Shown: positions 22,996-54,978 of the stretch, one piece after another | Position numbering within the stretch: the first letter of the stretch is position 1 | How the letters are laid out: every line of letters begins with the position of its first letter | Assembly (NCBI GenBank): GCA_963758525.1 | Contig: CAVWVQ010000003.1 | Span: 2,656,001-2,720,000 of the forward strand | Origin: an uncultured Phycisphaerales bacterium | GTDB lineage: Bacteria; Planctomycetota; Phycisphaerae; Tepidisphaerales; Tepidisphaeraceae | Direction of reading: 5' to 3' | Length of the DNA stretch: 64,000 nucleotides | The notes under the pieces: model-generated | What the model was told of the DNA's origin: nothing | Seen by the model: the letters and a program-made list of their open reading frames with translations, nothing else | Database searches by the model: none | Made by a program: the position numbers and the translations under genes

Positions 22996-24042
22996 TCACT
23001 GATCCGGCGTATTCATTCTGATCTTGTCGTCGTCCCAGTTGAGGTAATAGTGCTCGATGTACGCGATGCCCGAGTTCCAGGTCGGCCCGCCGTTGGCTGC
23101 TATATTCGGCGTTGCGGTTGTTGACGTCCACGGCTGCCATGTCCATCGGTCGTGATTGCAGTTGGTATAGTAGCCGCCCCAGGTGGTGTGATCGGAGGTC
23201 GCGGGAGAGCCAAGCGGAATATTCCCGTACCCTCCCCGATTACCCTGGGAAAAGCTCTTCTCCAGATTATCGCTGGAATCGGAGAGGATCTGGGCGGACC
23301 CGTCGAAGAACGCGCAGGAGAGTCCCTTGTTATGACCGACTTGCAACAGCGCGTCCTTTCTCCAGAAACTGCCAGTCCAGGCTTCCCAGAAGATGTCCAT
23401 CACCATCGGAGTATCCGGAGCGGCCCGGGTGATGTTGTGAGCCCAGGCCCAGTTGCACTTTCGCTGAGCTCCCGAACCTATGTTCGCTGCCACCGAGGGA
23501 GCATAAGCTGTATCGGCAATGGCGACGATGTAGCCCCCGTTCAGGTCGCCGTTAAACGCGCCACCAGGCCATGCGCCATTCCACAAGCCTGGATTCCACG
23601 TCGTTCCATCGCTGATGCTGGTCAACTGCGGAGCCGATTGCCAGTCGAAGCTCCACAGATCATCAGATGCCCGGCCCGGGCAATAGCAAAGATGCACATC
23701 GGTCAAATAGTTGCGGTAGAGCAGCGTTCCAGCTCCAGTCGGCCAGGTCTTGATGGCCCCGTTCACATAAATCTTTTGGGCAGGGCTGCAGCGCAGGAAG
23801 AACGTGTACCCGACCGGCCATCCCGTTCCATCGACGATGTTCGCGGGGAGTGAGCCCTTATTCTCGTTGGCATACATCAGATTGGCGGCCGCGATCTGCC
23901 GGACATTGCTGAGACACTGAATCTGTCTCGCTGCCTGCCGCGCCTTGCTGAGCGCGGGCAACAGGAGACTGACCAGTATCGCGATAATGCCAATCACGAC
24001 GAGCAACTCAACAAGAGTCAAACCGTTTCTTGGTTTCCGCAT
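22996..24042 (-). CDS. Type IV prepilin-like protein (N-terminal cleavage/methylation, H-X9-DG motif)
   Basis: [51 protein letters not shown]. Confidence 0.9.
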
Positions 24043-24057
24043 ATTTGCACGTGCGAA

Positions 24058-24089
24058 CTATTTGAGCCGTGGATCGCCCAGCGACACGA
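24058..24089 (-). repeat. Orphan copy of the last 10 codons plus stop of the fecR-like gene (cf. 26334-26365)
   Basis: CTATTTGAGCCGTGG(A/G)TCGCCCAGCGA(C/G)ACGA, 30/32 identical. Encodes VSLGDPRLK*. Confidence 0.85.
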
Positions 24090-24130
24090 GACATGGATGC
24101 AATGGTTTCACAAGCTTCCCGGTGAAAAAC

Positions 24131-24865
24131 TCACTGCGTCGCGACGTTGTCCCCGTAGAACTCATTGACGGTGCGGACCCACTCGTCGGCCAGAAGTTGC
24201 TGGCCGCTGAAGGTGGGATGAACTCCGTCCCAGATCCAGTAATCCGCCGGGGCGCGCTTGCAGGCATCTTCGTACACGTTCTGCAGTTTCACGAGGGGCG
24301 CATGGTACTTCGTTGCGAGATTCGCGACGATCTCCTGCCGCTTGAGCAATTCCATGTGGTATGCGTCCCAGTTCTCTTTCTTCTTGCCAGTGGGCAATCC
24401 GAATGGCTCGCACAATACCAGGCGCACGTGCGGCAATGCCTTGACCGTCTCAGCCAGCAATTCGTCGTAGCGCTGCTGGTAATCAGCTGCGCTGACGCCG
24501 CCGTTGAGATCGTTGACCCCGACCAGAATGCTCAGGATGTCGGGCTTGAGATTGAGCGTGTCTGTCTTCCACCGCGCCGCAAGATCATTGACCTTATTTC
24601 CGCTCACGCCCCGGTTAATGAACGTCAGATGTCGCTCCGGAAGCATCGCGCCATATTTGGCTCCGATGATAAACGCGTAGCTATGGCCCAGCACGTGATT
24701 GGGATCGGCGCTTCGACCGCGATTCATGTCGGTAATCGAGTCACCTTGAAAGAGGATGACGTTCCCTTCCTTAAAGGCAGGCATCTCGTTCTTCTCGGCC
24801 GCTGAGGCAATTACAGCTCCAACCAATGGGACGAGACTGGCGATTAAGGTGAGGTAATGTCGCAT
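24131..24865 (-). CDS. Secreted SGNH/GDSL hydrolase (esterase)
   Basis: Signal peptide; FQGDSITD, NRGVSG, GVND and DGVHP blocks. Confidence 0.9.
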   Translation of the reverse strand: MRHYLTLIASLVPLVGAVIASAAEKNEMPAFKEGNVILFQGDSITDMNRGRSADPNHVLGHSYAFIIGAKYGAMLPERHLTFINRGVSGNKVNDLAARWKTDTLNLKPDILSILVGVNDLNGGVSAADYQQRYDELLAETVKALPHVRLVLCEPFGLPTGKKKENWDAYHMELLKRQEIVANLATKYHAPLVKLQNVYEDACKRAPADYWIWDGVHPTFSGQQLLADEWVRTVNEFYGDNVATQ

Positions 24866-24879
24866 TTCAAGCGTGTCCT

Positions 24880-25698
24880 TTAGTACCACCACCACTGCCC
24901 CCATTGCTGGCCGTTCCAGTGCTCCGCGGACATATTGCCGACTGCTGAGCTGGCTGCATTATTAAGAGGGTTGACATAAGGTGCCGTGACCCACTCCCCG
25001 TGACCATCGGTAAACACCTGATTCGCTCCCGATACGTGCATCAAGCCCGCTGCGTCCTGATAAAATGCGTGGTTGATTGTCCATCCAACGCGGAACGGGT
25101 CCGCCGTCGCATATTGAACAATGTCGCCGAAGAGCGGGAGCGGTGCCCCATTGTTGGTTGAATCGACGGATTCGAGTCCGATGCGAGTAGGGCGCATCGC
25201 CGCCTTCCTCTCATATGATTGAATGGGCGGCAACCCCCACCCGTTGCCGAAATACATGTACGAAGTGCATACTGTATCAAAATAGACGAAATTGTTGCGC
25301 GTGTTGAAGTACGGGTTGCTGGGACATTCCCAGACTTCGCTGATGGCCTTCGGCTGATCGGTCACTGTGCCCGGGTCAGGGTAACCCATGGCAATGTACA
25401 TCCGAGTGATCATCCCGTTCACCCACATCGCCGATTGTGCCGGATTGTATTTGAATGAGTTGGTTCCGTTCTGGTGATTGCGCAGATCGAGCGGATAGCG
25501 TCCCTTGTTCTCGTTGGCATACATGATGGCGCTCAATCCGATCTGCCGAAGATTGCTCAGGCACTTGGTTTTATTGGCGGAATCGCGGGCCCTGGCCAGC
25601 GCCGGGAGGAGAAGCCCAATCAGCACCGCGATAATGCCGACTACCACCAATAGCTCAACAAGGGTAAAGCCGCTGCGAGTCTGCTCCGCTCGAACCAT
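24880..25698 (-). CDS. Type IV prepilin-like protein (H-X9-DG motif)
   Basis: [52 protein letters not shown]. Confidence 0.9.
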
Positions 25699-25783
25699 AA
25701 TCAACCTCGTGCTTTCTGCGGCGCGATCCAATTCGCGATTGCCGTAAAGCATAAGTGGCTGTCGGTGGTTGGCAGGCCTGCTC

Positions 25784-26314
25784 TCACTTGGTCGCTCCGT
25801 TGTCAGAATCAATGGGAGAGACCGGCACGAGACCCTCGGATCCACCGCCAGGACAAACCGGGGTGATGATGCGGAGGTATTCCTTGTAGGCAACGGGCTT
25901 CGTGATATCGCCTTGCACCCATATTATCTCCGCCGGTCGCTTCACTTCCATCGGTTCATCAATCATATCCGCTGCCGGCTTGTTTGCAGCGAATGCCGCA
26001 GTGATCCGCGCCTTTGCGGCATCGCTGTAGCGTTCAAGATAGCCAACGAACGGCCTGCCTGCCCCGCAGCGAAAGACCTCCGCCCGGACTGCTTGTTTAC
26101 CGTTGTGATCGAATGGCGCAAGCCTGGATCGATCGTCGATGAACCACGTTTTGCCGTCGTCGTCAGAATAAAACACCTTTGCGATTGAAACCGCAGCGCT
26201 CGCCCTTCCCTTCAAAAGCTGGATGAGAATAAACGTCAGCGCGATGAGAATCGCGACCACCGAAGCGGCCATCAAAAGTTTCTGCTGTCGGTTGATCGTA
26301 TCACGCACACTCAT
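25784..26314 (-). CDS. Uncharacterised 'DDG' prepilin-partner protein (paralog 2)
   Basis: TM helix; [37 protein letters not shown]. Confidence 0.8.
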
Positions 26315-26333
26315 TTGGATTCTGCACCAGCGA

Positions 26334-27941
26334 CTATTTGAGCCGTGGGTCGCCCAGCGAGACGACATCCCAGTCTAAACCATCACCTCCGTCGGTCGAT
26401 ACCAATGTCAGCGAATGCGCGGCGGGTTCGATGGGAACGTCAACGTCGAACGGCGGGTCCATGAGATGGATCAATTTGTGTGAACGGAGATCGCCGTCCA
26501 CGAACACCCAGAACTCCGATCGATCGGAGACTTTCCGACCAGTTCGTTCGACATATGCATTGATGTTCACGCACACAGCCACAAAATGCGAGAACGGCCG
26601 GTTGGGGTGCGCATTGCGAAGGGCATCGAGATCGAAGGTAATCCCTTTGTTTGCATGGAGCCGGAGTAATCGATGACCCGAGGAGGCGTAATCGATCGCC
26701 CCGATCCTGCCCGTGTTTGTCGGCTCAATACCCACCCGTGTCTCGATGTTTCCGGGCCAAATGTCCTGATATGCAAGATTGCAGGTCGGCGGAAAAATGT
26801 ACTGATCTCCAGCCGCGTCGAGCGTGTCAGGCTTTGGCCCGCCATGCGGGATGAAGACGCCCAATGGCAGGGAGGGACAGGGATGGAACTTCCCATCCCC
26901 GGGAACGCCGCGATTCAGTGCGGTCTGAACGCTGCGCTTATCTGTCGGCACCGGAAGGATCGTCCCACTCGCGATATCGATCCCGCCATTCGACTGGCGC
27001 TGCGTTCCGTCTCCGCCGGCGATCAGGTCCACCAGATCAATTGCCGGGACATCCTGGACAAAGTTTCCCGTGTGGCACTCAATCCTTTGCGCCGAACTGA
27101 CGCCCACATCGACGCGGGCGGCCTGCTCGGCCGAGAGGAGCAGCGCGGCTCCGCCGGCCTTGGGCGTTACTTCAACCGTGCCGCGGATGACATGCGTTTC
27201 GGTATTGCCTGCCTTGTCCACGATGATGCCGAACTCGGTGCCCAGATCGACGGTGCGTGAGGAAGGAGTCACAATGGTAAATCCGTGGGCGTTGGGAGGT
27301 ACGCTCACCGTGATTTTGCCGAGTTGGAGCGAGACGCTGTTCTGAGATTGAATTTCGAAATGAGAGGGCCCCTCGACCACGAGTGAAACGCCATTGTCCA
27401 GGCGGATCTGGGCCAACCCGCTGGCCAGTTGCAGCGGTCCAGCAGGAAGGGGCTGCCCGTCGTGTGGTGGCTGAACTGCGGTGTCCCAGACGGCCGAGGC
27501 GCTGGCGACCAGATCTCCGCCGGGTTTGGCGGGACGAAGAATCGACCAGAGCACAATACCAACAAGAACCGGGATCGCTATTGCAGCGGCGAGCCGCCAA
27601 AGCCGGCGCTGTGACGAAGATTTTGGCGGCGCGACGGGCGTTGTGGCAGGGGGCTGGGGTGATGCATCGGGTGCCGCGTCGGAGCTGGCCTCGTTTTCAG
27701 GTTCCAGCGTGATGGAAGGAAGAATCATCGCGTCGTCAAGTGAAGTGCCCAGAGAGGCGGTTTCTTCCAGAAGCTGGCGACCGCGCATGACCTGGCGCAG
27801 GCGCTGGTGGATCATCGACGCTCTGGTCACGATCCTGGCGTGAAGGGGATCTTCCTTCACCCAACGGCAGAGTTCAGCCGCCTCGGCTTCGTCCAGAAGC
27901 CCGTCGAAGTGTTTATCGAGAATTTCCATCGGGTCTTTCAT
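26334..27941 (-). CDS. FecR-domain anti-sigma factor with a C-terminal NPCBM/NEW2-like domain (cassette A)
   Basis: N-terminal helical domain, TM segment, FecR motif TVDLGTEFG..ETHVIRGTVEV, C-terminal HANKGITFDL..VFVDG..LTLVSTDGGDG..GDPRL. Confidence 0.85.
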   Translation of the reverse strand: MKDPMEILDKHFDGLLDEAEAAELCRWVKEDPLHARIVTRASMIHQRLRQVMRGRQLLEETASLGTSLDDAMILPSITLEPENEASSDAAPDASPQPPATTPVAPPKSSSQRRLWRLAAAIAIPVLVGIVLWSILRPAKPGGDLVASASAVWDTAVQPPHDGQPLPAGPLQLASGLAQIRLDNGVSLVVEGPSHFEIQSQNSVSLQLGKITVSVPPNAHGFTIVTPSSRTVDLGTEFGIIVDKAGNTETHVIRGTVEVTPKAGGAALLLSAEQAARVDVGVSSAQRIECHTGNFVQDVPAIDLVDLIAGGDGTQRQSNGGIDIASGTILPVPTDKRSVQTALNRGVPGDGKFHPCPSLPLGVFIPHGGPKPDTLDAAGDQYIFPPTCNLAYQDIWPGNIETRVGIEPTNTGRIGAIDYASSGHRLLRLHANKGITFDLDALRNAHPNRPFSHFVAVCVNINAYVERTGRKVSDRSEFWVFVDGDLRSHKLIHLMDPPFDVDVPIEPAAHSLTLVSTDGGDGLDWDVVSLGDPRLK

Positions 27942-27945
27942 GCAG

Positions 27946-28455
27946 TTACGACGCCATCCTCGCCTCTATACAGTCGCGCAGCGCCGCGCGCACGCGGTGC
28001 AGCGCGACATTAATCGCCCGAATATTGCTCCCCATCCGGCGGGCGATGTCATTGGGTTTGAGATTCTCCTGATAGCGCATTTCAACAAGATTCCGCGCCT
28101 TGTTCGCCAGCCGTTTGAGGCAGTGATCCATCGCATCGTGCAGGGGGCCCTGTTCGTGCTGAGCCTGGACGTGAGCCTCGGCCAGGGCCTGCAGGGCCTC
28201 CGAATCGAAGACCAACTTGTCGGCCGACTGACGCCGGTGCGAGTCCATCGCTTTGTTGCGGGCGATCCCGATGACCCAGGCATTGAACGACTGTGGCACG
28301 CTCCGCGACGGTTCGTGCGAAAGGACCGCCGCCGCCACTTCCTGCAAAACGTCCTGGGCGTCGTGGTAATCGGGAATCAGCAGTGATATGTAGGAATCAA
28401 CCAGCGGCTGAGCCGCCGCCCATTTCCTGGCGACATCTTCAATCGCGCTGTTCAT
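27946..28455 (-). CDS. ECF sigma-70 factor (cassette A)
   Basis: DAQDVLQEV, FNAWVIGIARNK, region 4 LVEMRY..IA..ALHRVRAALRDCIE. Confidence 0.92.
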   Translation of the reverse strand: MNSAIEDVARKWAAAQPLVDSYISLLIPDYHDAQDVLQEVAAAVLSHEPSRSVPQSFNAWVIGIARNKAMDSHRRQSADKLVFDSEALQALAEAHVQAQHEQGPLHDAMDHCLKRLANKARNLVEMRYQENLKPNDIARRMGSNIRAINVALHRVRAALRDCIEARMAS

Positions 28456-44787: not shown

Positions 44788-47700
44788 CTATATCCCTGGA
44801 AGTTCTCTGCTCCGCCGGCGGCGGGCGCTCAGCATCGGCAGCGCGCCGGCGAGCATCAGCATCGCCGAGCCGGGTTCGGGAGCGGCGTTGTAATCGAGGA
44901 CCAGATCGTAGGTACCGGAGACATTGACAAACTCCAGCGAGAAGATGCCTGTGGGCGGCGTGGCACCATTAATCGTCAGGCCGCTGCCGAAGTTGGATGT
45001 GTCGAGGGCAAAGACGTTGCTGCCGCTGCCGCTGGGAGTCGTCGTCAGCAGATTTGCGGTGCTGGTGCCGGACGTTGTGGTCAGTGAGCCGGCGGACGTT
45101 CCCGGCAGCGATGGAATGGTGTTGGACTGTCCGATGATCCAGCTATAGGTGCTCGTGTTGCTGGCGGTTGTCAGAGGACTGAGGTTGGCGGCCGCGATCG
45201 TGAACGGCTGATTTGATCCGCCCGACGAGACGGTCAGCCCGCTCATGCTGATGTCGTCCCAGTTCACGCCAGGCGTACCGCTGGCGCCGCTTCCGGGCGC
45301 CGCCGGTGTGGTTCCCAGCGCGGCGATCTTCCATTCGTAGGCCGCACCGCCGTTCCATGTCTCGTTACCCGTGGTGAGCTTTCCCGAGGTGAGGGCGTCC
45401 GCTCCCGCGGTGATGATGCCGCCATTCCTGGCAGCGGCATTTCCGGTGAGGGTGACCGCTCCTTTGACGGTGCCATTTCCACCAAGAATGCCGCCGGTAT
45501 AGGCGGTGCCGTTGCCTATCCCCACCGTCACGCTGCCGTTGCCAGTTGAGCTGGTGGCATTGTTAGCGCGAATTGTGCCAGCCGATATGGTTGTTCCGCC
45601 GGCATAAAGATTCTGCCCCGACAGCGCCATGGTGCCGGCGCCCGTCTTGGAGATTCCCGATCCGCCATTCTCCGCGATCACGCCACTCACGTTTAGATCG
45701 GTTACGGCGGCACCTTTGGCCACGCTGAACCCCAATGTCCCGCTGCGAATGACGAGCGGTGCGCTGATGGTTGATGTCGTGGCACTGGCGTTGGTGGTGA
45801 TCCCGAATCCCGAGCTGAAGTTGTAGCCGTGCATTCCATCGAACGCGCCGGTTTGCGACATCGTTCCGCCGGTGAGCACGAAGTTGGTGATGAAACCGTT
45901 GTTATTGGTGTTGACCGAGTTGTTGAGGGTGCCGCCGTTGATGTTCACCGTGGGCACCGAAGTGCCGCTGCTGTACCCAAGCGCATCATTGGCAGTCAGG
46001 CTAACAACCGCTCCAGAACTAATAGTGAGCGTGCCTCGAATGGTGCCAGCGGAGCCGCCGGTCGCCAACGTCAATGTTCCAGCACTCACTGTAGTCGCGC
46101 CCGTATAACTGCTTGCGCCGGACAGGGTCAGCGTCCCAGATCCGACCTTTATTAACGCGCCCGACGAGCCGTTGTCCTGGATAATGCCGCTGAACGTCGT
46201 GCTCGCATTCAGATTCCCGATAGCGAGATTACCCGCATCCTGGAGATAGCCGAAACCTGCGAGAGAACCAAAATTCACGGTCTCGCCGCCACTGACACGG
46301 AAGCTGGAACTCGCGTTGTTGCCGCTATTGCTGAAGACAACACTCGCATTGGAAAGGTCGAGAGTGGTAGTTGGTGCGAAGACGTTGACAGTTTTTTGAG
46401 TCCCGGCGGAAGTACTGTAGGTCAACGTACCTGTGAATCCGCTCCAGTTCACCCCGCTGCCGAGAAACACGGATAGAGCGGTGCCGCTCGAGTTTTGAAT
46501 CGTCGCACCTCCGCTGCCGGTCAAATTGCCGTTGATGGTTGAACCCCCAATGATGTCGATCGTTGACGAGGTGCCGGCGGCGGCAATGAGATTATTGCCC
46601 AACGTTACGGTGTTCATCTGCAGGGTGCCGCCGCTCAGGGTGACATTGCCTGTACCGAGTGCGGAATTGTTGTTCAATCGCAGTGTGCCGGCGTTGAGCG
46701 TCGTTCCGCCGCTGTACGTGTTCGACGCGGTCAAAATCGCCAGACCCGGACCATTCTTGACCAGGATCGTTGGGTGCGAACCATCAACGATTTGAACCTG
46801 GATCTCGCTGTCCGTCAGCGCTGTATTGGGATTGTAAAGAAATAATTCACCGCTGGTCAGGCCGGACGTGATATTCCCGCTTCCCTTGATCCACTTACTA
46901 TTGGCACCTTGATCGATGAGGCCACCGCTGGCGAGCGTCAGCGCGCCGTTAATCGTTATGTCGCCGCTGCCGTTTTCGATCAGCGTGTTGATCGTTCCGC
47001 CGGTGGTATTCAGGCCATCGCCCACCCAGTTCGCGGTCGATGAGGCGGTTGTTGTCGTGGCGGCGGCCGTGATGGTATAGGTGCCGCTGCTGCTGCCGCT
47101 GTGAGCCCAACTGTAGGTGCTGTTGCCGTTATCGATCACCGCCCAGCCGCCAATCATCCCGCCGTTCACATCCAAACTGGTGGTGGTAATGTTCCCCGTT
47201 GTGGTGAATTTGACGGTGCCGCCGCTGCCCGCGGTCTGCGTCAAATTGCCCAAATTGAGCGTGTCGGTGGAGACGGTGATATTGATAGCGGATTGCCCGC
47301 CCGCGTTGATCGTCGTGGTCGTAAAGGATTGCGAGTTCGTGCCGGCTTTCGAGTAATTGAATGTCCCGCCACCGAAGTTCAGGGCCGTTGAGCTCAGGGA
47401 GCCGGTGAGCGTGAGCGTACCGGCGTTAATGGTGGTAGGGCCGGTATAACTTTCCGTGTTGGAGAGTGTGAGCGTGCCCGTGCCGGTTTTCGTGAATCCG
47501 GCGCCGGAGTCGGAAATCACCGAGGCGATGGTTGCCGTGCCGGCGATGTCAAAGTTACCCCCGGCAGCGAGAGTAAGATTCAAAGTGCCGGTGCTGGCGT
47601 TGCCGATGGCAAGGTTGCCGCCGGATGCGATGTATAGGAGGTCGCCTGCGATTCCGGAAACCGAGTTGTTGCCGCCGTTGAGCGTGATCGTGCTGGTGCC

Positions 47701-48057
47701 GCTGCCGTTGGTGTTGTTGATGCTAAGCGTTTGCGTCGCGTCCAAGTCATTAAGCGTGCCGATGTTCAGGTTGAACGAGGGGGCATTCAGCGTGAATGCC
47801 GTGGGGGAATAGGTGGTATTGGTGAATTGGATGTCATTGGAAGTGAGTGGCGCACCACCACTAAAGCTTCCATTGCTCGTCAAGTCGGCTGAACCGTTGA
47901 GGACGCTGTTGGCCGTGTTCGCGCTCGCTCCCACGCTGCTTACAACAGTGGACAACGTCGCGGCCGCGGCCAGCGAAAGCCGTCTCATTGTCTTGTTGCG
48001 GCGAGCCAATTGGGGGGAAATGGTTCTGCCGCCGATGAATCCGTTGCGAACTTGCAT
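44788..48057 (-). CDS. Autotransporter-associated beta-strand-repeat surface protein with PEP-CTERM (cassette B)
   Basis: Paralog of 28675; TKTGTGTLTLSN repeats; APEPG..RRRRSR tail. Confidence 0.9.
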   Translation of the reverse strand: MQVRNGFIGGRTISPQLARRNKTMRRLSLAAAATLSTVVSSVGASANTANSVLNGSADLTSNGSFSGGAPLTSNDIQFTNTTYSPTAFTLNAPSFNLNIGTLNDLDATQTLSINNTNGSGTSTITLNGGNNSVSGIAGDLLYIASGGNLAIGNASTGTLNLTLAAGGNFDIAGTATIASVISDSGAGFTKTGTGTLTLSNTESYTGPTTINAGTLTLTGSLSSTALNFGGGTFNYSKAGTNSQSFTTTTINAGGQSAINITVSTDTLNLGNLTQTAGSGGTVKFTTTGNITTTSLDVNGGMIGGWAVIDNGNSTYSWAHSGSSSGTYTITAAATTTTASSTANWVGDGLNTTGGTINTLIENGSGDITINGALTLASGGLIDQGANSKWIKGSGNITSGLTSGELFLYNPNTALTDSEIQVQIVDGSHPTILVKNGPGLAILTASNTYSGGTTLNAGTLRLNNNSALGTGNVTLSGGTLQMNTVTLGNNLIAAAGTSSTIDIIGGSTINGNLTGSGGATIQNSSGTALSVFLGSGVNWSGFTGTLTYSTSAGTQKTVNVFAPTTTLDLSNASVVFSNSGNNASSSFRVSGGETVNFGSLAGFGYLQDAGNLAIGNLNASTTFSGIIQDNGSSGALIKVGSGTLTLSGASSYTGATTVSAGTLTLATGGSAGTIRGTLTISSGAVVSLTANDALGYSSGTSVPTVNINGGTLNNSVNTNNNGFITNFVLTGGTMSQTGAFDGMHGYNFSSGFGITTNASATTSTISAPLVIRSGTLGFSVAKGAAVTDLNVSGVIAENGGSGISKTGAGTMALSGQNLYAGGTTISAGTIRANNATSSTGNGSVTVGIGNGTAYTGGILGGNGTVKGAVTLTGNAAARNGGIITAGADALTSGKLTTGNETWNGGAAYEWKIAALGTTPAAPGSGASGTPGVNWDDISMSGLTVSSGGSNQPFTIAAANLSPLTTASNTSTYSWIIGQSNTIPSLPGTSAGSLTTTSGTSTANLLTTTPSGSGSNVFALDTSNFGSGLTINGATPPTGIFSLEFVNVSGTYDLVLDYNAAPEPGSAMLMLAGALPMLSARRRRSRELPGI

Positions 48058-48294: not shown

Positions 48295-48819
48295 ATGAAT
48301 GAATCAATCGAGGATGTTGCCAGGAAATGGGCTGCGGCACAGCCGCTGGTTGCTTCGTTTATTTCCTTGATTGTATCGGACTTCCATAACGCACAAGACG
48401 TGCTGCAGGAGGTCGCGGCGGCGGTGTTGTCTCACGACCCATCCCGCAGCGTCCCCGAGTCGTTTAACGCGTGGGTCATTGGGATCGCCCGTCATAAGGC
48501 GTTGGATTTTCATCGCCGTCAGACCCGCGACAAACTGGTCTTTGACTCAGAGGCGCTGTCGATCCTCGCCGAGGTGCATCAGGAGGTTCGCCAGGACCAG
48601 GGGCCGCGCCGCGAGGCCATGGAGCATTGTCTCAAGCGGCTGGCTTCCAAGGCGCGCCGGCTCATCGAACTGCGCTACCAGGATGATATGAAGCCGGGCG
48701 CGATCGCCGGGGCGATGGGGAGTAACGTCAGCGCGGTGAAGGTCGCGCTCCACCGCGTGCGGGCGGCGCTGCGGGTCTGTATTGAGGCGCGGCTCAGTTC
48801 TGGAATCGAGCTGACATGA
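48295..48819 (+). CDS. ECF sigma-70 factor (cassette B)
   Basis: Close paralog of 27946; NAQDVLQEV, FNAWVIGIAR. Confidence 0.92.
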   Translation: MNESIEDVARKWAAAQPLVASFISLIVSDFHNAQDVLQEVAAAVLSHDPSRSVPESFNAWVIGIARHKALDFHRRQTRDKLVFDSEALSILAEVHQEVRQDQGPRREAMEHCLKRLASKARRLIELRYQDDMKPGAIAGAMGSNVSAVKVALHRVRAALRVCIEARLSSGIELT

Positions 48820-50411
48820 AGGACCCGATGGCACTTCTCGACGAACACTTCGACGGCATCCTCGATGAAGCCGGGGCGGCAGAGTTGTCGGCATGGGTGA
48901 AGCAGAACCGTCGCAACGCCCGCCTTCTGGTCGATGCCGCGCGGTTGCACCAGGATCTTCGCGAACTGTTCCTTGGCCGCCGGCTTTTGGAAGAGGCGGC
49001 ATCATCAGGCACTTCGCTCCATGACGCGATGATCCTCCCCGCTATATCGCTTCCAGCCAATGATGAAGCGGAGGCGCAGACCCCTCCGGTGGCAACGGTA
49101 CCGACTCGCATTGAACCATCGACGTCGCGTTTGCGTCATCGGTACTGGAAAATCGCCGCTGCGATCGCGATCCCGATTCTGGCCGGCATCGTACTCTGGT
49201 CAGTCCTTCGCCCCGCCAAACCCGGCGGAGCTCTGGTCGCCAGCGCCTCGGCCGTTTGGGACAATGCAGTTCAGCCACCACACGACGGGCAGCCCCTTCC
49301 TGCTGGACCGCTGCAACTGGCCAGCGGGCTGGCCGAGATACGCCTTAATAACGGCGTTTCACTCGTCGTTGAAGGCCCGGCGCATTTCCAGCTTCAATCT
49401 CAGAACAGCGTCGCGCTTGAACTGGGCAAAATTACGGTAAGCGTACCTGCCACTGCCCACGGATTTACCATTCAGACTCCCTCCTCGCGCACCGTCGATC
49501 TGGGGACAGAGTTCGGCGTCATCGTGGACGACGCCGGAAATACCGAAACGCATGTCATCCGCGGCACGGTTGAAGTAACGCCCACCGCCGGTGGCGCAGC
49601 GCTGCTCTTCTCGGCAGACCACGCGGCACGCGTCGATGTCGGCGCCACTTCGGCGCAAACGATTGAGTGCCACGCGGGGAATTTTGTGCAGGACGTCCCG
49701 GCAATCGACCTTGTGGACGTCATCGCCGGCGGAGACGGGACGCAGGGACGGTCAAATAGCGGGATCGATATGGCCACTGGCAAAGCCTTGCCGGTGAAAG
49801 TCCCGGCAGGCATGAACCCCGGGCCCGAACCAACGATTCGCGGAGACGGAAAGTTCCACCCCTGCCCCTCCCTGCCATTGGGTGTCTTCATCCCGCATGG
49901 TGGGCCGACGCCTGACACAGTCGACGCTGCCGGCCACCAGTATATTTTCCCGCCCACGAGCAACCTTGCGTATCAAAACATTTGGCCCGGATCCGCCCAG
50001 CATCTGCTGGGTGGCGATTCGCCTACCACTGGTATGACCAAAGAGAATGGCTACCCGGCGCCGGGTCACCGATTACTCGAACTTCATGCCAATAAAGGAA
50101 TCACGTTCGATCTCAATGCACTGCGCACCGCTCATCCCGACCGGCCATTCTCGCATCTCGTCGCCCGTTGCGTGAATATGAATGCATATGCCGAACCAGT
50201 GATCGGTGCAATAGTCTCCGATCGATCGGAGCTTTGGATATTTGTGGATGGCGATCTCCGTGCACACAAGCTGATTCATCGCATGGACCCGCCATTCGAT
50301 GTTGACGTTCCCATCGAACCCGCTTCGCATTTTTTGACATTGGTGGTGAGCGACGGAGGAGATGGCTTCGACTGGGACGTGGTGTCGTTGGGTGATCCAA
50401 GGTTAAAATGA
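48816..50411 (+). CDS. FecR-domain anti-sigma factor with an NPCBM-like domain (cassette B)
   Basis: ATGA overlap with sigma. Close paralog of 26334. Confidence 0.85.
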   Translation: MKDPMALLDEHFDGILDEAGAAELSAWVKQNRRNARLLVDAARLHQDLRELFLGRRLLEEAASSGTSLHDAMILPAISLPANDEAEAQTPPVATVPTRIEPSTSRLRHRYWKIAAAIAIPILAGIVLWSVLRPAKPGGALVASASAVWDNAVQPPHDGQPLPAGPLQLASGLAEIRLNNGVSLVVEGPAHFQLQSQNSVALELGKITVSVPATAHGFTIQTPSSRTVDLGTEFGVIVDDAGNTETHVIRGTVEVTPTAGGAALLFSADHAARVDVGATSAQTIECHAGNFVQDVPAIDLVDVIAGGDGTQGRSNSGIDMATGKALPVKVPAGMNPGPEPTIRGDGKFHPCPSLPLGVFIPHGGPTPDTVDAAGHQYIFPPTSNLAYQNIWPGSAQHLLGGDSPTTGMTKENGYPAPGHRLLELHANKGITFDLNALRTAHPDRPFSHLVARCVNMNAYAEPVIGAIVSDRSELWIFVDGDLRAHKLIHRMDPPFDVDVPIEPASHFLTLVVSDGGDGFDWDVVSLGDPRLK

Positions 50412-50424
50412 ATTAGGTGCATAG

Positions 50425-53181
50425 ATGCGGAAACGAGCACGCGATTTTACTCTTGTTGAGCCGCAGCGCTGCCTCAGGCGAAGATCCAAATCAGCTTTCA
50501 TCTCTGAAGGGGCTTCTTGTCAACGGCGAGACGGCTTGATTGCTAAGTTCCGTTCATTGCTCTCTCCGATCAGCTTCGCGCACTCCCCCTGCGCCCTTGG
50601 CGGGGAGGCTAACGAGGCGGGGGTTTGGGGGCAGAGCCCCCAAGTCTTTGTCGTTCTCGGCGGAACCGTGGCTGCCATCCGGCACCGCGCGGGCGGCGCG
50701 ATGCGGCGGTTGAATTCATCTCTATGCGGTCATCGGACGGACGGGTCGCAATGCCAGGCCGTGTGTTCCGAGCCGAATAAAACCTTGTTCGCGTCAACCG
50801 GGCCGAATTCACACTGTCGCAGTCACCAGCAGAACCCGAATCCGACGCCAGTGGCGTCCGATTCGAACCAATGCCTGCCGGGCCGAATGAAGCCGAGTCG
50901 CGGTCTCCAGATTGACGAGACATCGTCTTGCATGGCTGCAAGAACTATTGATGTCATAAGCGTTCCGCCGAACCGCTGGTCATGCCAGGATCATCTCCTC
51001 TTCTTGTTTGACAGGTTGTTGCTTAGCAGATTGTTGCTTGAGCCGGGCCTTGTTGGCCGCCCGCTCGTGTCCGGTGGGCTCCTGGCCCTGGTAGGCCGTC
51101 CCGTCGCGGACCATGGCAAAGAGGACACGCAGCAGGCGTCTTCCCATCGCGACGTTCGCCTTGGGCTTGACCATGTGTCCGATCAGCCGCTGGCGGATCG
51201 CCTCCTGCTTCGCGTCGGAGCGGCAGAGGGTGACCGCGGCCTTGCACAACGCCCAGCGCAGCGTGGCGCTGCCCGCCTTGGTGATGTGACCCGACTGGGT
51301 CCGGCCGGCCGACTCCTGGTTGTCGGGAGTCAATCCCGCCCAGAACTCGAGGGTGTCGGCGTTGGGAAAACGGGAGAACTCGCCGATCTCCGCGGCGATG
51401 ATGCACGCCCAGATCTCGTCGATTCCCGGCACGCTCTTGAGAATCGCAATCAGGGAGGCGAATCGCCGGTCGCGGTTGGCAAAAATGATTTTCCTGCGCA
51501 GGCATTCCCGCTGTCGCTCGATCAGGCAGACCAGGTCCAGGAAGTTGCCGAAGGCTTCGCGCTGCACGTCCTTGAGCAGATCGCCATTGGCCAGCAGCCA
51601 TTTCTGGGCGCCGGCGCCGTCCAGCTTGGGACCGCGAATGTTGGCGGCCAGGAGCATCGACCGCATGGCGTGCTTGGCGCGGGTGAGGGTGCGGGACAAA
51701 TGCCGCCAGTGCCGGCCGAGCTTGCGGAGCTGCATCACTGCTTCGGGGGCGATCCATCCCAGCGGGCACTCCCCGCGGGAGAGGCGCTGGGCGATGTCGG
51801 CCGCGTCCTTGCGATCGGTCTTGCGCCGCTTACCCCGGAGGTTGGACAACTGCGTCGCGTCGGCGATCTCGATCTTGTCCACGCAGGAGCGGAAGCGGTC
51901 GATGAACCACTCGACAAAGCCGACGGCTTCCACTGCCAGGCGGCTGGGACGCGGCAACGCCAGCATCCATTTTTCGATGCGGTCAACGCACTTGGTGTCA
52001 CAGGTCAGCGCGGCGATCTGCGTCCCCGAAGCATCGACAGCACACAGCGAGACGGTACACTTATGCAAATCCACGCCGACGAACGCGGCGTACGAAACAG
52101 GCACATCAGACATAACAAACTCCGTGTTAGGGACCAAGGGAACTTAGAACACTCCCGGAAGCGTAACGGCTTCCGCAGGCCCCTTCACGGTTTTACGCTG
52201 GTGGAACTCCTCGTTGTTATTGGAATCATCGCTGTCTTGATTGCATTATTGCTTCCGTCCCTCCAAAAAGCGCGACAGCAGGCCAGGTACGTCAGATGGC
52301 AGGCTTTCAGCCGTGATTTGTCGATGGATCCCAGCGTCATCGTCCATTACGACATGCAGAATGATGCGGGAACCTCCTTCCTGACGAATATGGCCATGGG
52401 TAATGCCCGAGACCCATCAATGGTCCCGTCCAATCTCGACGCGCAGATTCTCGACTGGTCGCAGAGCCCCTTTCCGCTGCTCTCGGTCAACTATCCCGGG
52501 CAGGTGGCCGCACTATGGTCGAATAGCGGGCGATTCCCGGGAAAGCCGGCCCTGTCGTTCAACCCAACGCTCACACCCAACGCCATGGCCTACATCGGAC
52601 AGCGGAACAATGGAATCGGTCGGATCGCCAACATGCTGCGCAAAACGCAGGCCTACACGCTTTTGTACTGGGTCTATGTGCCCCGTCCGGCTGTTGACAA
52701 CCAGCTCTTTGTGTATTGGGCTGGCAAGGGCAATTCTGCACAGATCGTGGTCACCACGGATATGGCCTGGGGCGGGAACGTCAACGCCTCGCAGGGGAGC
52801 GGTTTTGGCGGTTCCCCTACCATGACCTCATTTTCCACCGGAACAGGAGCGATTCCATTCACCTATGGGCAAGACTCGCGGTGGAATCTGTTTGCCTTCA
52901 CCAGCGATCGCAGATCTGGAGTTGCCAAGCTCTATCAGAACGGCGTGCTGGTCGCCTACCAGCAGTCGGGCAACCAGTTGATCGTCGGCCCTGACGTGGC
53001 GTATCCAACCGGCAGCGATCCTGGCGCATTGGTCTTTGGAAATTGGCCGAACCACGGTGAGAACAATATCGTCTGCGACGAATTTGGACTTTTCGACTCT
53101 GATCTTTCTCCCAACGACCCATTGATACTGGGCACCATTTCGCCACGCTTTTTCCCGATGTACACTGTGGGCGTGAATTAA
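50425..53181 (+). CDS. Type IV prepilin-like protein with a C-terminal LamG-like domain, carrying an in-frame IS1111-type insertion (host parts 50425-50500 and 52196-53181)
   Basis: Reconstructed native N-terminus [48 protein letters not shown]. LamG-like [24 protein letters not shown]. Confidence 0.85.
50514..50979 (-). ncRNA. Predicted seekRNA/bridge-RNA region of the IS1111-type element (exact ends unknown)
   Basis: Noncoding region 3' of the transposase with hairpins (about 50626-50641, 50813-50823, 50838-50864, 50926-50943) and segments matching the target and donor junctions. Confidence 0.6.
50980..52113 (-). CDS. IS110-family DEDD transposase/recombinase
   Basis: VGVDLHK, AVEAVG and KTDRKDA (DEDD); [30 protein letters not shown]. 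Confidence 0.95.
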
Positions 53182-53211: not shown

Positions 53212-53691
53212 ATGGCGCTTAGAGAATTCTTCAGTCAAAACCCCAAGGCGGTCGCCACAGGGACCGTCCTGGTGCTGGCAGCTTGCCTTGTTGTGATCTT
53301 TTCCGAGTTGAACGGCGGCGGAAAACCCAGGTTGCCGATCATGCCTGATCAGGCATTTTACACCACTGACGACGGCGCTACCCTCTTCGCCGATTCCCTC
53401 TCCAAAGTTTCCCCAATCGACCATAATGGGCATCAGGCTGTGCGGGCCCACGTCTACAGCTGCGATGGAGGGCGCCATCGATGGGTGCAGTATCTGGAAA
53501 AGATGACCGAGAAAGAGAAAACAATCGCTGAATCTCCCGAGCAATCCCGCAGCCATTCGTTCGATCCTCTGATCAAAAAGCCGGGGGATTCAAAATGGGT
53601 CCACCAGAGCGATCTCACTGCGCCGGCGATGATGATCCCAAAGTGCCCCGACGGGATGGGCTCAGGCGTGCCGCAACCCGTCGCCCCCTGA
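53212..53691 (+). CDS. Uncharacterised 'DDG' prepilin-partner protein (paralog 3)
   Basis: TM helix; FYTTDDGATLF, PIDHNGHQAV, VYSC, YLEK, KKPG..WV, CP. Confidence 0.8.
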   Translation: MALREFFSQNPKAVATGTVLVLAACLVVIFSELNGGGKPRLPIMPDQAFYTTDDGATLFADSLSKVSPIDHNGHQAVRAHVYSCDGGRHRWVQYLEKMTEKEKTIAESPEQSRSHSFDPLIKKPGDSKWVHQSDLTAPAMMIPKCPDGMGSGVPQPVAP

Positions 53692-54099
53692 CCCTGAAAG
53701 CCGCTTGCGCGAAAAAGTCAGGCTGTGCCTTTCATCTGCGGGAATGCGAAGTACAGTTGGAAATGCGAAGGGGGTCAGCCCCAGGTCAGCCCAGCTTCCC
53801 GTTTGAAGCCGCACGTTTCGTTTTCTCCGGGCCCTTGCTGTTGTTCTCCTTACTCGGCCGCCACGGATTTCGCGCCGCGGGTGATCTCGAGTTCCAGTTG
53901 CCGCAAGCCCGTCGTGGGGGAGACGCAGCCGGGCGCGGCTGGTTGTTCTCAATTCATCTTCACCTTCGATATTGTCTTGCTTCGGGCTGCAGCGCGGCAT
54001 GCGATTGTACTGCAGGCGCAGGCGGGTCAACATCCTGCGCACAGTCCCCTCAACGATGCTCAAAAACAACCACAGAGAGGGAGGAGCGCACGGAGCACA

Positions 54100-54326
54100 C
54101 ACGCCGCGGAGCGTGCATTGCGCCCGGCGGTGGTGGCCCGGAAGATCAGCGGCGGGAGCCGCAGCAGAAACGGCGCGGAGGCATGGGCGACGCTTTGCTC
54201 GCTGCTCCGCACGGCCGATCAGCAGGGCCAGAATCTGCTCGAGACGATCAAGGCGATGTTAATTGGAGCATGGGCCGCGAAGCGGCCGCCGACCATGCCG
54301 GCGGGGCCGTGACTGCAGCCAGTTAC
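54100..54326 (+). mobile_element. IS66-family remnant (transposase C-terminus and right end)
   Basis: AERALRPAVVARKISGGSRSRNGAEA..SLLRT, followed by a GTTAC terminus. Confidence 0.7.
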
Positions 54327-54978
54327 CCCAAATAACTCGCGTTCGCCTGATGCATTCCCGTTCGTCATGGTTTACAGACTGACCCCTGCATCGGAAAGGT
54401 TAAGAATTGTTGAAGACGCAATTGTAGCGCAGGAAACAGTAGCATCAGGACAGACGCTGAGGGTTATGCTCCCGTCCTAGATAGGAAGCTGGGCGACCCT
54501 CTTCGCGCCTCCCGAATTTTCGGCGCACCCCCACAATTCATGATAAAACATCCGCTCGACAAGGCTTAGCCGATCACAGGAGAATTGAGCCGATGGGCAC
54601 CACTACCGCAGTTTCAGCGAAGCTAACCTGGAATGGCGTGCCTGCGAAGAAACATGGCGACTCCTTTGCCGACGCGACAAGAAATACCGCGTTTTCGGTG
54701 GAGTTCAAGCAGTGCTCTTTTTCACTAAAGTCCCTGTAGCCGCCCCAAAAATAAGTTATCCAGCCGTTTTTGCCGGCGCGACCGGCGTCACTGAACGATA
54801 AAAGCCCCGCTTGCAGACGGGCGGCAGCTTCAGAATCACACGCTCTCGCTGGGAGGCGGAAAAGACGGAGCGGTTCTTTTGACGACGAGTGATGGTGATC
54901 CGGTTTGTACAGTCTCGATCCGGACTCGTTCCCGCTGATCTACGGCCCCGATGAGCAGCGTGACAGTGCAAGGCAGTC

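Follow-up and report, generated by a model that had tools for sequence, protein, structure and literature searches.

An insertion sequence lies within a prepilin gene of the window, the 64,000-nucleotide stretch of DNA that was analysed as a whole (Table 1). Both junctions match their wording in the initial annotation, and excision of positions 50501-52195 in silico yielded a single restored prepilin ORF. The A at the junction is common to the target and to the element ends and forms a 1-base core, so that the boundary of the element is uncertain by one base. The genome carries four full-length copies that are 99.7-100% identical. All four are inserted in the antisense orientation after TTC A of F-T-L-[VI]-E codons, in four different prepilin genes, and this shared position makes a chance placement untenable. 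Two of the copies occupy minor-pilin genes that follow one another with ATGA coupling in a PilB/C/M/N/O-type operon, for a pilus or for type II secretion, and more genes of the operon lie downstream. The prepilin that follows genome copy 2 contains a frameshift about 30 codons past the element (a mutation or an assembly error). A paralogous locus that lacks the element resembles the window copy in its upstream FecR and its LamG-type mature part. The host genome also contains two Peptidase_A24 matches. An empty allele was sought in five relatives, in which no close orthologue was found (best match 40% over 108 aa); the contigs from four DNA sequencing runs, which are short, of low depth and uninformative either way, included no circle or empty-site joint.

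Table 1. Features of the occupied prepilin locus, with positions in the window.
Feature	Position	Strand	Remarks
ECF-type sigma factor and FecR-like genes	48295..50411	+	Directly upstream of the prepilin gene
Read-through ORF	50425..53181	+	918 aa: native leader, 565 element codons and mature prepilin-like protein; predicted leader 589 aa
Host prepilin gene, native start and leader	50425..50500	+	Ends with A-F and the first base of the Thr codon
IS1111-type element	50501..52195	-	1,695 bp, or 565 codons; runs antisense to the host gene; includes one shared core base
Non-coding region 3' of the transposase	50501..50979	-	479 nt
Sub-terminal inverted repeat, right end	50505..50513		9 bp, perfect
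-35 box TTGACA, predicted circle-junction promoter	50518..50523	-	
Predicted bridge/seek RNA	50708..50925	-	Two similar internal-loop modules, repeated framework
Predicted donor guide, right end	50718..50723	-	Matches the element right end and core
Predicted donor guide, left end	50778..50784	-	Complementary to the element left end
Predicted target guide 2, CAGUGU-GAA	50808..50816	-	G:U/G:T wobble pairing with TTC ACR YTG
Predicted target guide 1, GGCUUCA	50888..50894	-	Matches G/A-F-T codons up to the crossover
DEDD transposase/recombinase	50980..52113	-	377 aa from ATG; D15, E62, D100, D103; C-terminal GLTP....SAG
In-frame ATG, possible internal restart	52063..52065	+	43 codons before the site; antisense to the conserved His17 codon of the transposase
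Replacement cleavage site	52174..52195	+	R-R-P-L-H-G|F and the first Thr base; element-encoded
Sub-terminal inverted repeat, left end	52179..52187		In the pilin frame, encodes part of R-P-L-H
-10 box TAAAAC	52190..52195	-	17 nt from the -35 box after end joining; same bases are G-F-T on the pilin strand
Mature prepilin-like protein	52192..53181	+	329 aa; N_methyl motif and Laminin_G_3; same as the empty-allele product

By its anatomy, the element is placed in the IS1111 group. The transposase matches PF01548 and PF02371, scores above the cut-off for NF033542 and displays the traits of the group: the DEDD and PF02371 domains, the GL-P----S(t)G motif, sub-terminal repeats and, downstream of the transposase, a non-coding region that is long (359-713 nt across the 56 clusters of homologues described below). 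In the accessible parts of PMC11187229 and PMC11208160, the IS1111 elements ISEc11, ISKpn4 and ISPa11 likewise combine DEDD and PF02371 domains with sub-terminal repeats, a downstream non-coding region and a junction promoter, and the group resembles our element in carrying the top-strand complement 5' of the bottom-strand match, in its single orientation and in natural reprogramming. Sub-terminal inverted repeats, usually 11-13 bp in the group and 7-17 bp in the available text of PMC11208160, measure 9-12 bp in 53 of the 56 clusters. Some details differ. Terminal extensions of IS1111 elements are 7 bp on the left and 3 bp on the right, with no target duplication; here they are 7 on the left and 4 on the right plus one shared base, the 7/3 arrangement being obtained only if the outermost pair of the repeat is mismatched. 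At 377 aa the transposase exceeds the 330-350 aa given for the group, again from partly accessible sources, and, unlike in the IS1111 group, two guide modules, one for target and one for donor, are evident. The only solved relatives by sequence are the bridge recombinases of IS621 and ISCro4 (PDB 8wt6, 9t56), which match in the C-terminal domain with E ~1e-20 but have an IS110-group architecture and are distant in sequence. If the element moves through a circular intermediate, the joined ends would form a promoter, and the motif T[TA]GACN-17-TAAAAC, predicted to be that promoter, is present at 55 of the 56 computed end-to-end junctions.

Homologous loci were collected from genome contigs (27) and from metagenomes (the best 80 of 204). 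Together with the four copies of the genome itself, L003 and L002 (from the same-genus genome G001), and after removal of L033, which equals L002 in every measured feature, this gave 112 tabulated loci; both ends are present in 73 of them, which fall into the 56 clusters at 90% nucleotide identity. Most homologues on long contigs belong to Planctomycetota, a phylum in which the element is widespread. The two matches at 1e-40 among 401 genomes of a phylum sample, the element's own genome included, are no gauge of rarity, because MAG assemblies lose repeats. A protein search, which is free of context and speaks to family size only, produced 915 matches among 8,000 scored. In viral contigs, a junction-pattern search returned two matches, one unrelated and one an element end. 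A second clade of elements, with 33-37% identity, was reached through L139 and inserts at the same target base; the viral contigs contained no match to the protein of this clade.

The proposal that prepilin codons serve as a multicopy landing pad, made in the initial annotation, is strongly supported by the genome copies, by the flanks of homologues and by the second clade. Across the 112 loci, which include the best 80 of 204 metagenomic ones, tabulation of flanks revealed T-[LM]-[IV]-E at 80 of the 86 left junctions that retain 12 nt or more of flank, and [GAS]-F at 69 of 78 right junctions; the six remaining left junctions comprise two tandem elements, three non-prepilin sites and one T-M-V-V. 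A logo of 62 distinct target sites has conserved codon positions 1 and 2 and a free position 3. When the elements were removed from the genome in silico, 50 codon sites for G/A-F-T-L/M-x-E were counted, and TTC ACR YTG occurs at exactly four of these, the four that are occupied; none of the other 46 is. The two further prepilin motifs, at 24021 and 25668 on the minus strand of the window, have the codons attributed to them and are both empty. An additional 289 TTCACRYTG sites in the genome, 45 of them with an upstream G[CG]N, are also empty, which implies that additional recognition, or selection against other insertions, is required. The empty prepilin sites of the genome read TTT in 36 cases and TTC in three. 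This skew is no clear sign that hosts escape through a TTC-to-TTT change, since in a 61-genome set the same skew is seen where the element was not found (TTT to TTC 110:14 in G040, 49:16 in G012 and 68:28 in G002). Motif-encoding codons have been described as targets before: ISEc21, an IS110-group element, is RNA-guided and likewise uses conserved codons of a multicopy motif, namely those for the second D of IS3 transposases (PMC11187229). Its sites lie in the genes of other selfish elements, its non-coding region is upstream, and preservation of frame is not reported in the part of that source available.

The element is likely RNA-guided through two loops, as judged from a predicted RNA within the downstream non-coding region. 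In an alignment of 27 sequences, 24 of the 51 consensus pairs have compensatory changes; the single-sequence fold did not differ significantly from shuffles (z -0.57), and Rfam gave nothing at gathering score over 50300-52400, its one weak match lying far below. The variable slots of module 1 match the target to either side of the crossover and those of module 2 match the two element ends, and in both modules the slots follow the order described for IS1111 (PMC11187229, in its accessible part). An alternative guide candidate, CUGCUGGUGA at 50823-50832, was discarded as conserved framework that is repeated in both loops. Degenerate target codons are apparently read by wobble with the predicted guides. 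In many homologues the guide differs from the single observed target at one to three positions. In elements that have moved to other kinds of target, the predicted guides have changed with the flank: guide 1 and guide 2 are altered to fit the new non-prepilin flank in L086, as is guide 2 in L040, while in L094 and L095 the donor guide and the element end change together.

What the initial annotation missed is the main point of the locus, namely that the element is in frame, is free of stops and rebuilds the cleavage site. Among the homologues, element length is divisible by three in 51 of 56 clusters and in 34 of 39 distinct lengths (1,581-1,899 bp, in a sample that includes the best 80 of 204), and 48 of the 56 clusters are both in phase and stop-free in the pilin frame. 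Eight clusters depart from this: L032 and L091 contain one or two stops, L109 is frameshifted close to its right end, L040 and L086 are retargeted, and L079, L083 and L120 are of a restart type considered below. The stops of L032 and L091, like the one or two in L077, lie in the transposase antisense; single frameshifts occur in L109 and in L172-L174. The non-coding region alone keeps one phase in 31 of 36 distinct lengths. In the window copy it contains no stop in the pilin frame, against four and six in the other two antisense frames; across homologues the stops per antisense frame number 324, 248 and 50, where dinucleotide shuffles predict 210, and all 50 in the pilin frame come from six out-of-phase elements.

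The same avoidance is seen within the transposase genes. That of the window has no TTA, CTA or TCA codons among 365 counted. Under a codon null that overestimates about twofold in control genes, codons equivalent to stops on the pilin strand were seen seven times against 265 expected in 82 prepilin-targeting genes, of which 77 have none, and 58 times against 117 in 27 other IS110 genes, of which three have none. Eight retargeted genes, so labelled by their flanks and guides independently of stop counts, have 31 such codons against 74 expected, with one to seven in each and none without; the 13 genes with unknown flanks, which were kept apart, all have zero. In host genes, stop-antisense codons are absent from 231 of 1,953 long ORFs (12%). 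Because the elements are kin, p-values on such counts overstate the significance. In a quick maximum-likelihood tree (75 rows, prepilin group subsampled) the retargeted genes have three separate origins, and the three independently retargeted lineages have regained stops. In the second clade, nine complete elements have prepilin flanks; six of these keep the phase and hold zero or one stop, that one being directly followed by an ATG, and the other three have one frameshift each, inside the transposase. The antisense peptide is only weakly conserved (49% identity, against 72% for the transposase and 54% at four-fold sites), and what has been selected therefore looks to be translatability rather than sequence.

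Several observations bear on whether this openness is a by-product of codon usage, with the G-F-T arising from the -10 box and donor site and the insertions being ordinary knock-outs of redundant genes. In-register antisense frames are indeed often open in GC-rich genes, as in the 12% of host ORFs and in three of the 27 control transposases, and the same end sequence persists in retargeted elements. The open frame is nevertheless not mere codon bias, because the non-coding region by itself shows it too, as do transposases whose GC3 is near 0.5, each of which would be expected to carry 6-11 such codons and has zero. In-phase and stop-free non-coding regions would remain unexplained, as would those transposases and the new ATGs that appear at frame breaks. 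We regard this account as largely refuted already and as having hardly any remaining probability.

The element also restores what it displaces. In 47 of 48 stop-free elements, the left end encodes on the pilin strand a basic stretch followed by ...R-P-L-H-G-F. Of 105 junction readings, a number that counts re-fetched duplicates, 103 have Gly at residue -1 and 2 have Ala. Native prepilin sites have Gly or Ala at -1, and prepilin peptidase tolerates Ala there; Gly at this position is called critical in the available text of PMC4471445. Mean net charge over the 16 residues up to G-1 is +4.3 in the 48 elements, against -0.1 elsewhere in the inserts. The window fusion scores above the TIGR02532 cut-off at residues 588-610, and traits of a class III signal peptide are present at the rebuilt site (Gly -1, Glu +5 and a hydrophobic tract of about 21 residues). 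Leader length departs from this pattern, at 589 aa by read-through in the window against the 6-26 aa of described prepilin leaders (PMC4471445, as far as accessible). Conservation of the left end is by itself weak proof of a cleavage site, because the same bases serve as -10 box, donor site and repeat.

Elements with a broken frame offer the stronger evidence. Among 76 distinct left ends, 65 run unbroken into the pilin, and an ATG lies within 30 codons of the site in seven of eight broken-frame, prepilin-targeting left ends (three of them sisters), against three of the 65 read-through ends. Six restart elements would have a 16-19 aa leader. In L078, L079 and L083, a variant of the right-end repeat creates an ATG at base 7, which opens a frame of about 1,610 nt whose stop overlaps or abuts a new ATG with a 16-residue leader; the retargeted sisters L086 and L087 have ATA at the position of the ATG. 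A derived low-GC lineage thus appears to relay translation through new ATGs instead of reading through.

Target, orientation, whole-codon length, absence of stops, the rebuilt G-1/F+1, the basic residues that precede it and the loss of these traits on retargeting are all directly observed, and they point to the following model. SRP/Sec inserts prepilins so that the leader stays in the cytoplasm, and cleavage after Gly-1 on the cytoplasmic side removes the leader (PMC4471445, in the part available). The element inserts antisense into the Thr codon of G/A-F-T-L-x-E, keeps the frame open throughout and re-encodes G|F-T with its left end. Ribosomes would then read through the whole element, a precursor with a leader of about 590 aa would be inserted in the membrane, and the host prepilin peptidase would cut off the element-encoded stretch with the leader to leave a wild-type mature pilin; meanwhile, the open frame would spare downstream operon genes from polarity and maintain coupling. 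Since the insert starts one codon past the cut site and the site is re-created at its far end, the insert lies wholly within the part to be discarded. From these features we consider it probable that read-through and removal of the insert with the leader by prepilin peptidase preserve both the pilin and operon coupling, although the cleavage step is much less certain than selection for an open frame.

On a narrower account, the sole role of the open frame is to hold ribosomes on the mRNA, which would avoid Rho polarity and maintain coupling, while the fusion is degraded and the pilin is made by internal restart or lost. Rho is encoded in the genome. In addition, L078, L079 and L083 keep their frame of about 1,610 nt unfused to the pilin, which indicates that openness is valuable apart from fusion. 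Restart could use the in-frame ATG or GTG that lies about 43 codons upstream in all elements (always within about 41-65 codons of the site, antisense to the His codon), and membrane-like hydrophobic 19-mers, present in 8 of 48 inserts against 3% in shuffles, as scored on a hydrophobicity scale, could disturb the topology of a fusion. If the pilin were lost, however, Gly or Ala at -1 would be needless, with the proviso that these bases double as -10 box and donor site. If it were made by restart, an unbroken frame into the pilin would be needless, yet this is what the 65 of 76 left ends have, only three of them with a near ATG. We therefore hold this account to be unlikely, if a serious contender.

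That the antisense ORF encodes a functional protein, for example a regulator of transposition, with the fusion to the pilin incidental, is much less probable still. Two clades keep a frame of 530-630 codons as an ORF, and the low-GC lineage supplies it with an ATG of its own; its sequence, however, is poorly conserved, synonymous sites are near-saturated, no Pfam match covers the insert in the two fusions scanned, and the frame was lost in all three retargeted lineages. A domesticated Piv-like pilin recombinase, acting in gene shuffling or as an excision switch, is suggested by the family relation to Piv, by a target at the constant/variable boundary of pilin genes and by two complete elements with hybrid flanks, one prepilin and one non-prepilin (L055, L120), but is scarcely credible given near-identical complete mobile copies at many loci, native pairing of flanks at the three genome copies checked of four (the window copy and copies 3 and 4) and the fact that an excision switch would profit from gene disruption and not from staying in frame. 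L055 adjoins what appears to be another mobile element. The earlier suggestion that pilin genes are recombined with one another finds no backing in these flanks, which are native at the window copy and fit their operon at copies 3 and 4. The kinship with Piv that was invoked for it holds at the level of the superfamily; in the accessible part of PMC11187229, however, Piv groups with IS492/IS621, outside IS1111. Piv of Moraxella also acts at pilin genes, but as an invertase, and not as a multicopy element.

Returning to removal of the insert with the leader, this would represent a third intragenic lifestyle beside RNA and protein splicing, in which 1.4-1.9 kb of DNA, with a recombinase and a guide RNA encoded on one strand and an unbroken disposable peptide with a rebuilt protease site on the other, persists as stop-free, antisense-translated filler in a cleavable leader that is removed by a host peptidase. 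The strategy would extend over two clades at 33% identity and allow different elements to stack in tandem within one leader. We hold this reading to be fairly probable, if slightly less so than the removal itself. Inteins with homing endonucleases are also in frame, translated with the host protein, placed in conserved motifs and removed post-translationally. Our element is likewise in frame within a conserved motif and would share translation with the host protein and removal after it, but it has no self-splicing domain, its mobility gene is on the opposite strand, and its removal would be an N-terminal trimming without ligation; Pfam (in two fusion proteins) and NCBIfam detected no Hint domain in the insert. 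In tRNA- or tmRNA-targeting islands, the end of the element makes good the part of the target that it displaces. Here, unlike in those islands, only two codons plus basic residues are restored, and translation would run through the element itself. IStrons are likewise insertion sequences that are harmless inside genes and have their sequence removed from the gene product, but they remove themselves from RNA by a group I intron and often have a stop at the insertion point (PMC4227781, in the part accessible), whereas our element is kept free of stops, and a host enzyme would take it out of the protein. Rfam detected no group I intron over 50300-52400, and the ends, the transposase and the non-coding region account for the whole element. 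The IS1111 group also differs from our element, whose target is a coding motif of host genes and which is in frame, has no stops on the host strand and re-creates a protease site. In the full-text literature searched, largely outside subscription papers and ISfinder notes, we found no account of prepilin targeting or of hiding in a leader; the word "prepilin" does not occur in the searchable text of the seven supplementary files of PMC11208160, and processing of a prepilin leader of about 590 aa is not reported in the searchable literature. As proposed from the sequences, this way of being harmless is one for which we found no precedent.

For annotation, prepilin genes of this kind are liable to be called pseudogenes or truncated although they are probably intact. 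The homologues also provide an extensive natural collection of IS1111 two-loop RNAs, in which retargeting has occurred and degenerate codons appear to be read by wobble. If the model is correct, prepilin peptidases should accept leaders of about 600 residues, which would be of value for secretion engineering, and a mobile element would have converted a processing step of its host into self-removal at the protein level. This would explain how an insertion sequence can colonise dozens of coding targets at low cost, even in consecutive genes of a pilus operon.

Tandem stacks of elements were seen at the element ends at five loci of homologous elements (L079, L111, L126, L132 and L146). The left end of the element regenerates the target, and further elements land at that point. 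At L126 and L146, elements from both prepilin-targeting clades are joined together. Two more IS110-type genes flank L079; the end of one of them reads ...SLHGF, which suggests a third clade.

Within the element's own non-coding region, a GC-rich piece of ~50 bp matches many unrelated contigs with differing flanks; judged from these matches, it is probably a small repeated element nested inside the IS.

The native leader of the occupied prepilin contains a second, unused F-T-L-V-E, 17 codons upstream of the real site, preceded by Asp and followed by Pro. Behind genome copy 2 (G000:C3 ~3873290), the occupied prepilin carries a frame shift ~30 codons past the element, reflecting either a mutation or an assembly error. 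In the paralogous FecR-prepilin cluster, the prepilin reads L-T-L-V-E and is unoccupied, and its FecR is 71% identical to that beside the element. Across the empty prepilin motifs of the source genome (GC 61%), the Phe+1 codon is TTT in 36 cases versus TTC in 3, a skew present also in some relatives where no element was found. The gene of the 1,089-aa protein is divergent from the sigma-FecR-prepilin cluster, and the protein's tail is presumably PEP-CTERM-like.

Features of the window discussed here
Feature	Position	Strand	Description
Paralogous FecR-prepilin cluster	~24000-28000	minus	
1,089-aa protein	44788-48057	minus	passenger-associated repeats, PF12951
FecR	48816-50411		
Native leader	50425-50500		
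GC-rich piece	50592-50644		
ORF fragments	53595-54335		putative IS66-type transposase C-terminus, by resemblance

Some elements have changed target. The left junction of L167 (G595:C29), a clade-2 element, lies in a gene beginning ...W-F-Q-F-S-V-A-E-I-L-V-L, a start resembling an N-terminal motif that occurs in many copies among planctomycete membrane proteins, and the element's left end, R-P-L-H-S-F, is in frame with this new host gene. L094, L095, L098 and L099 form a subclade of low-GC elements that have been retargeted; their guides are new, their flank is of the TTGTA type, and they constitute a useful natural reprogramming set.
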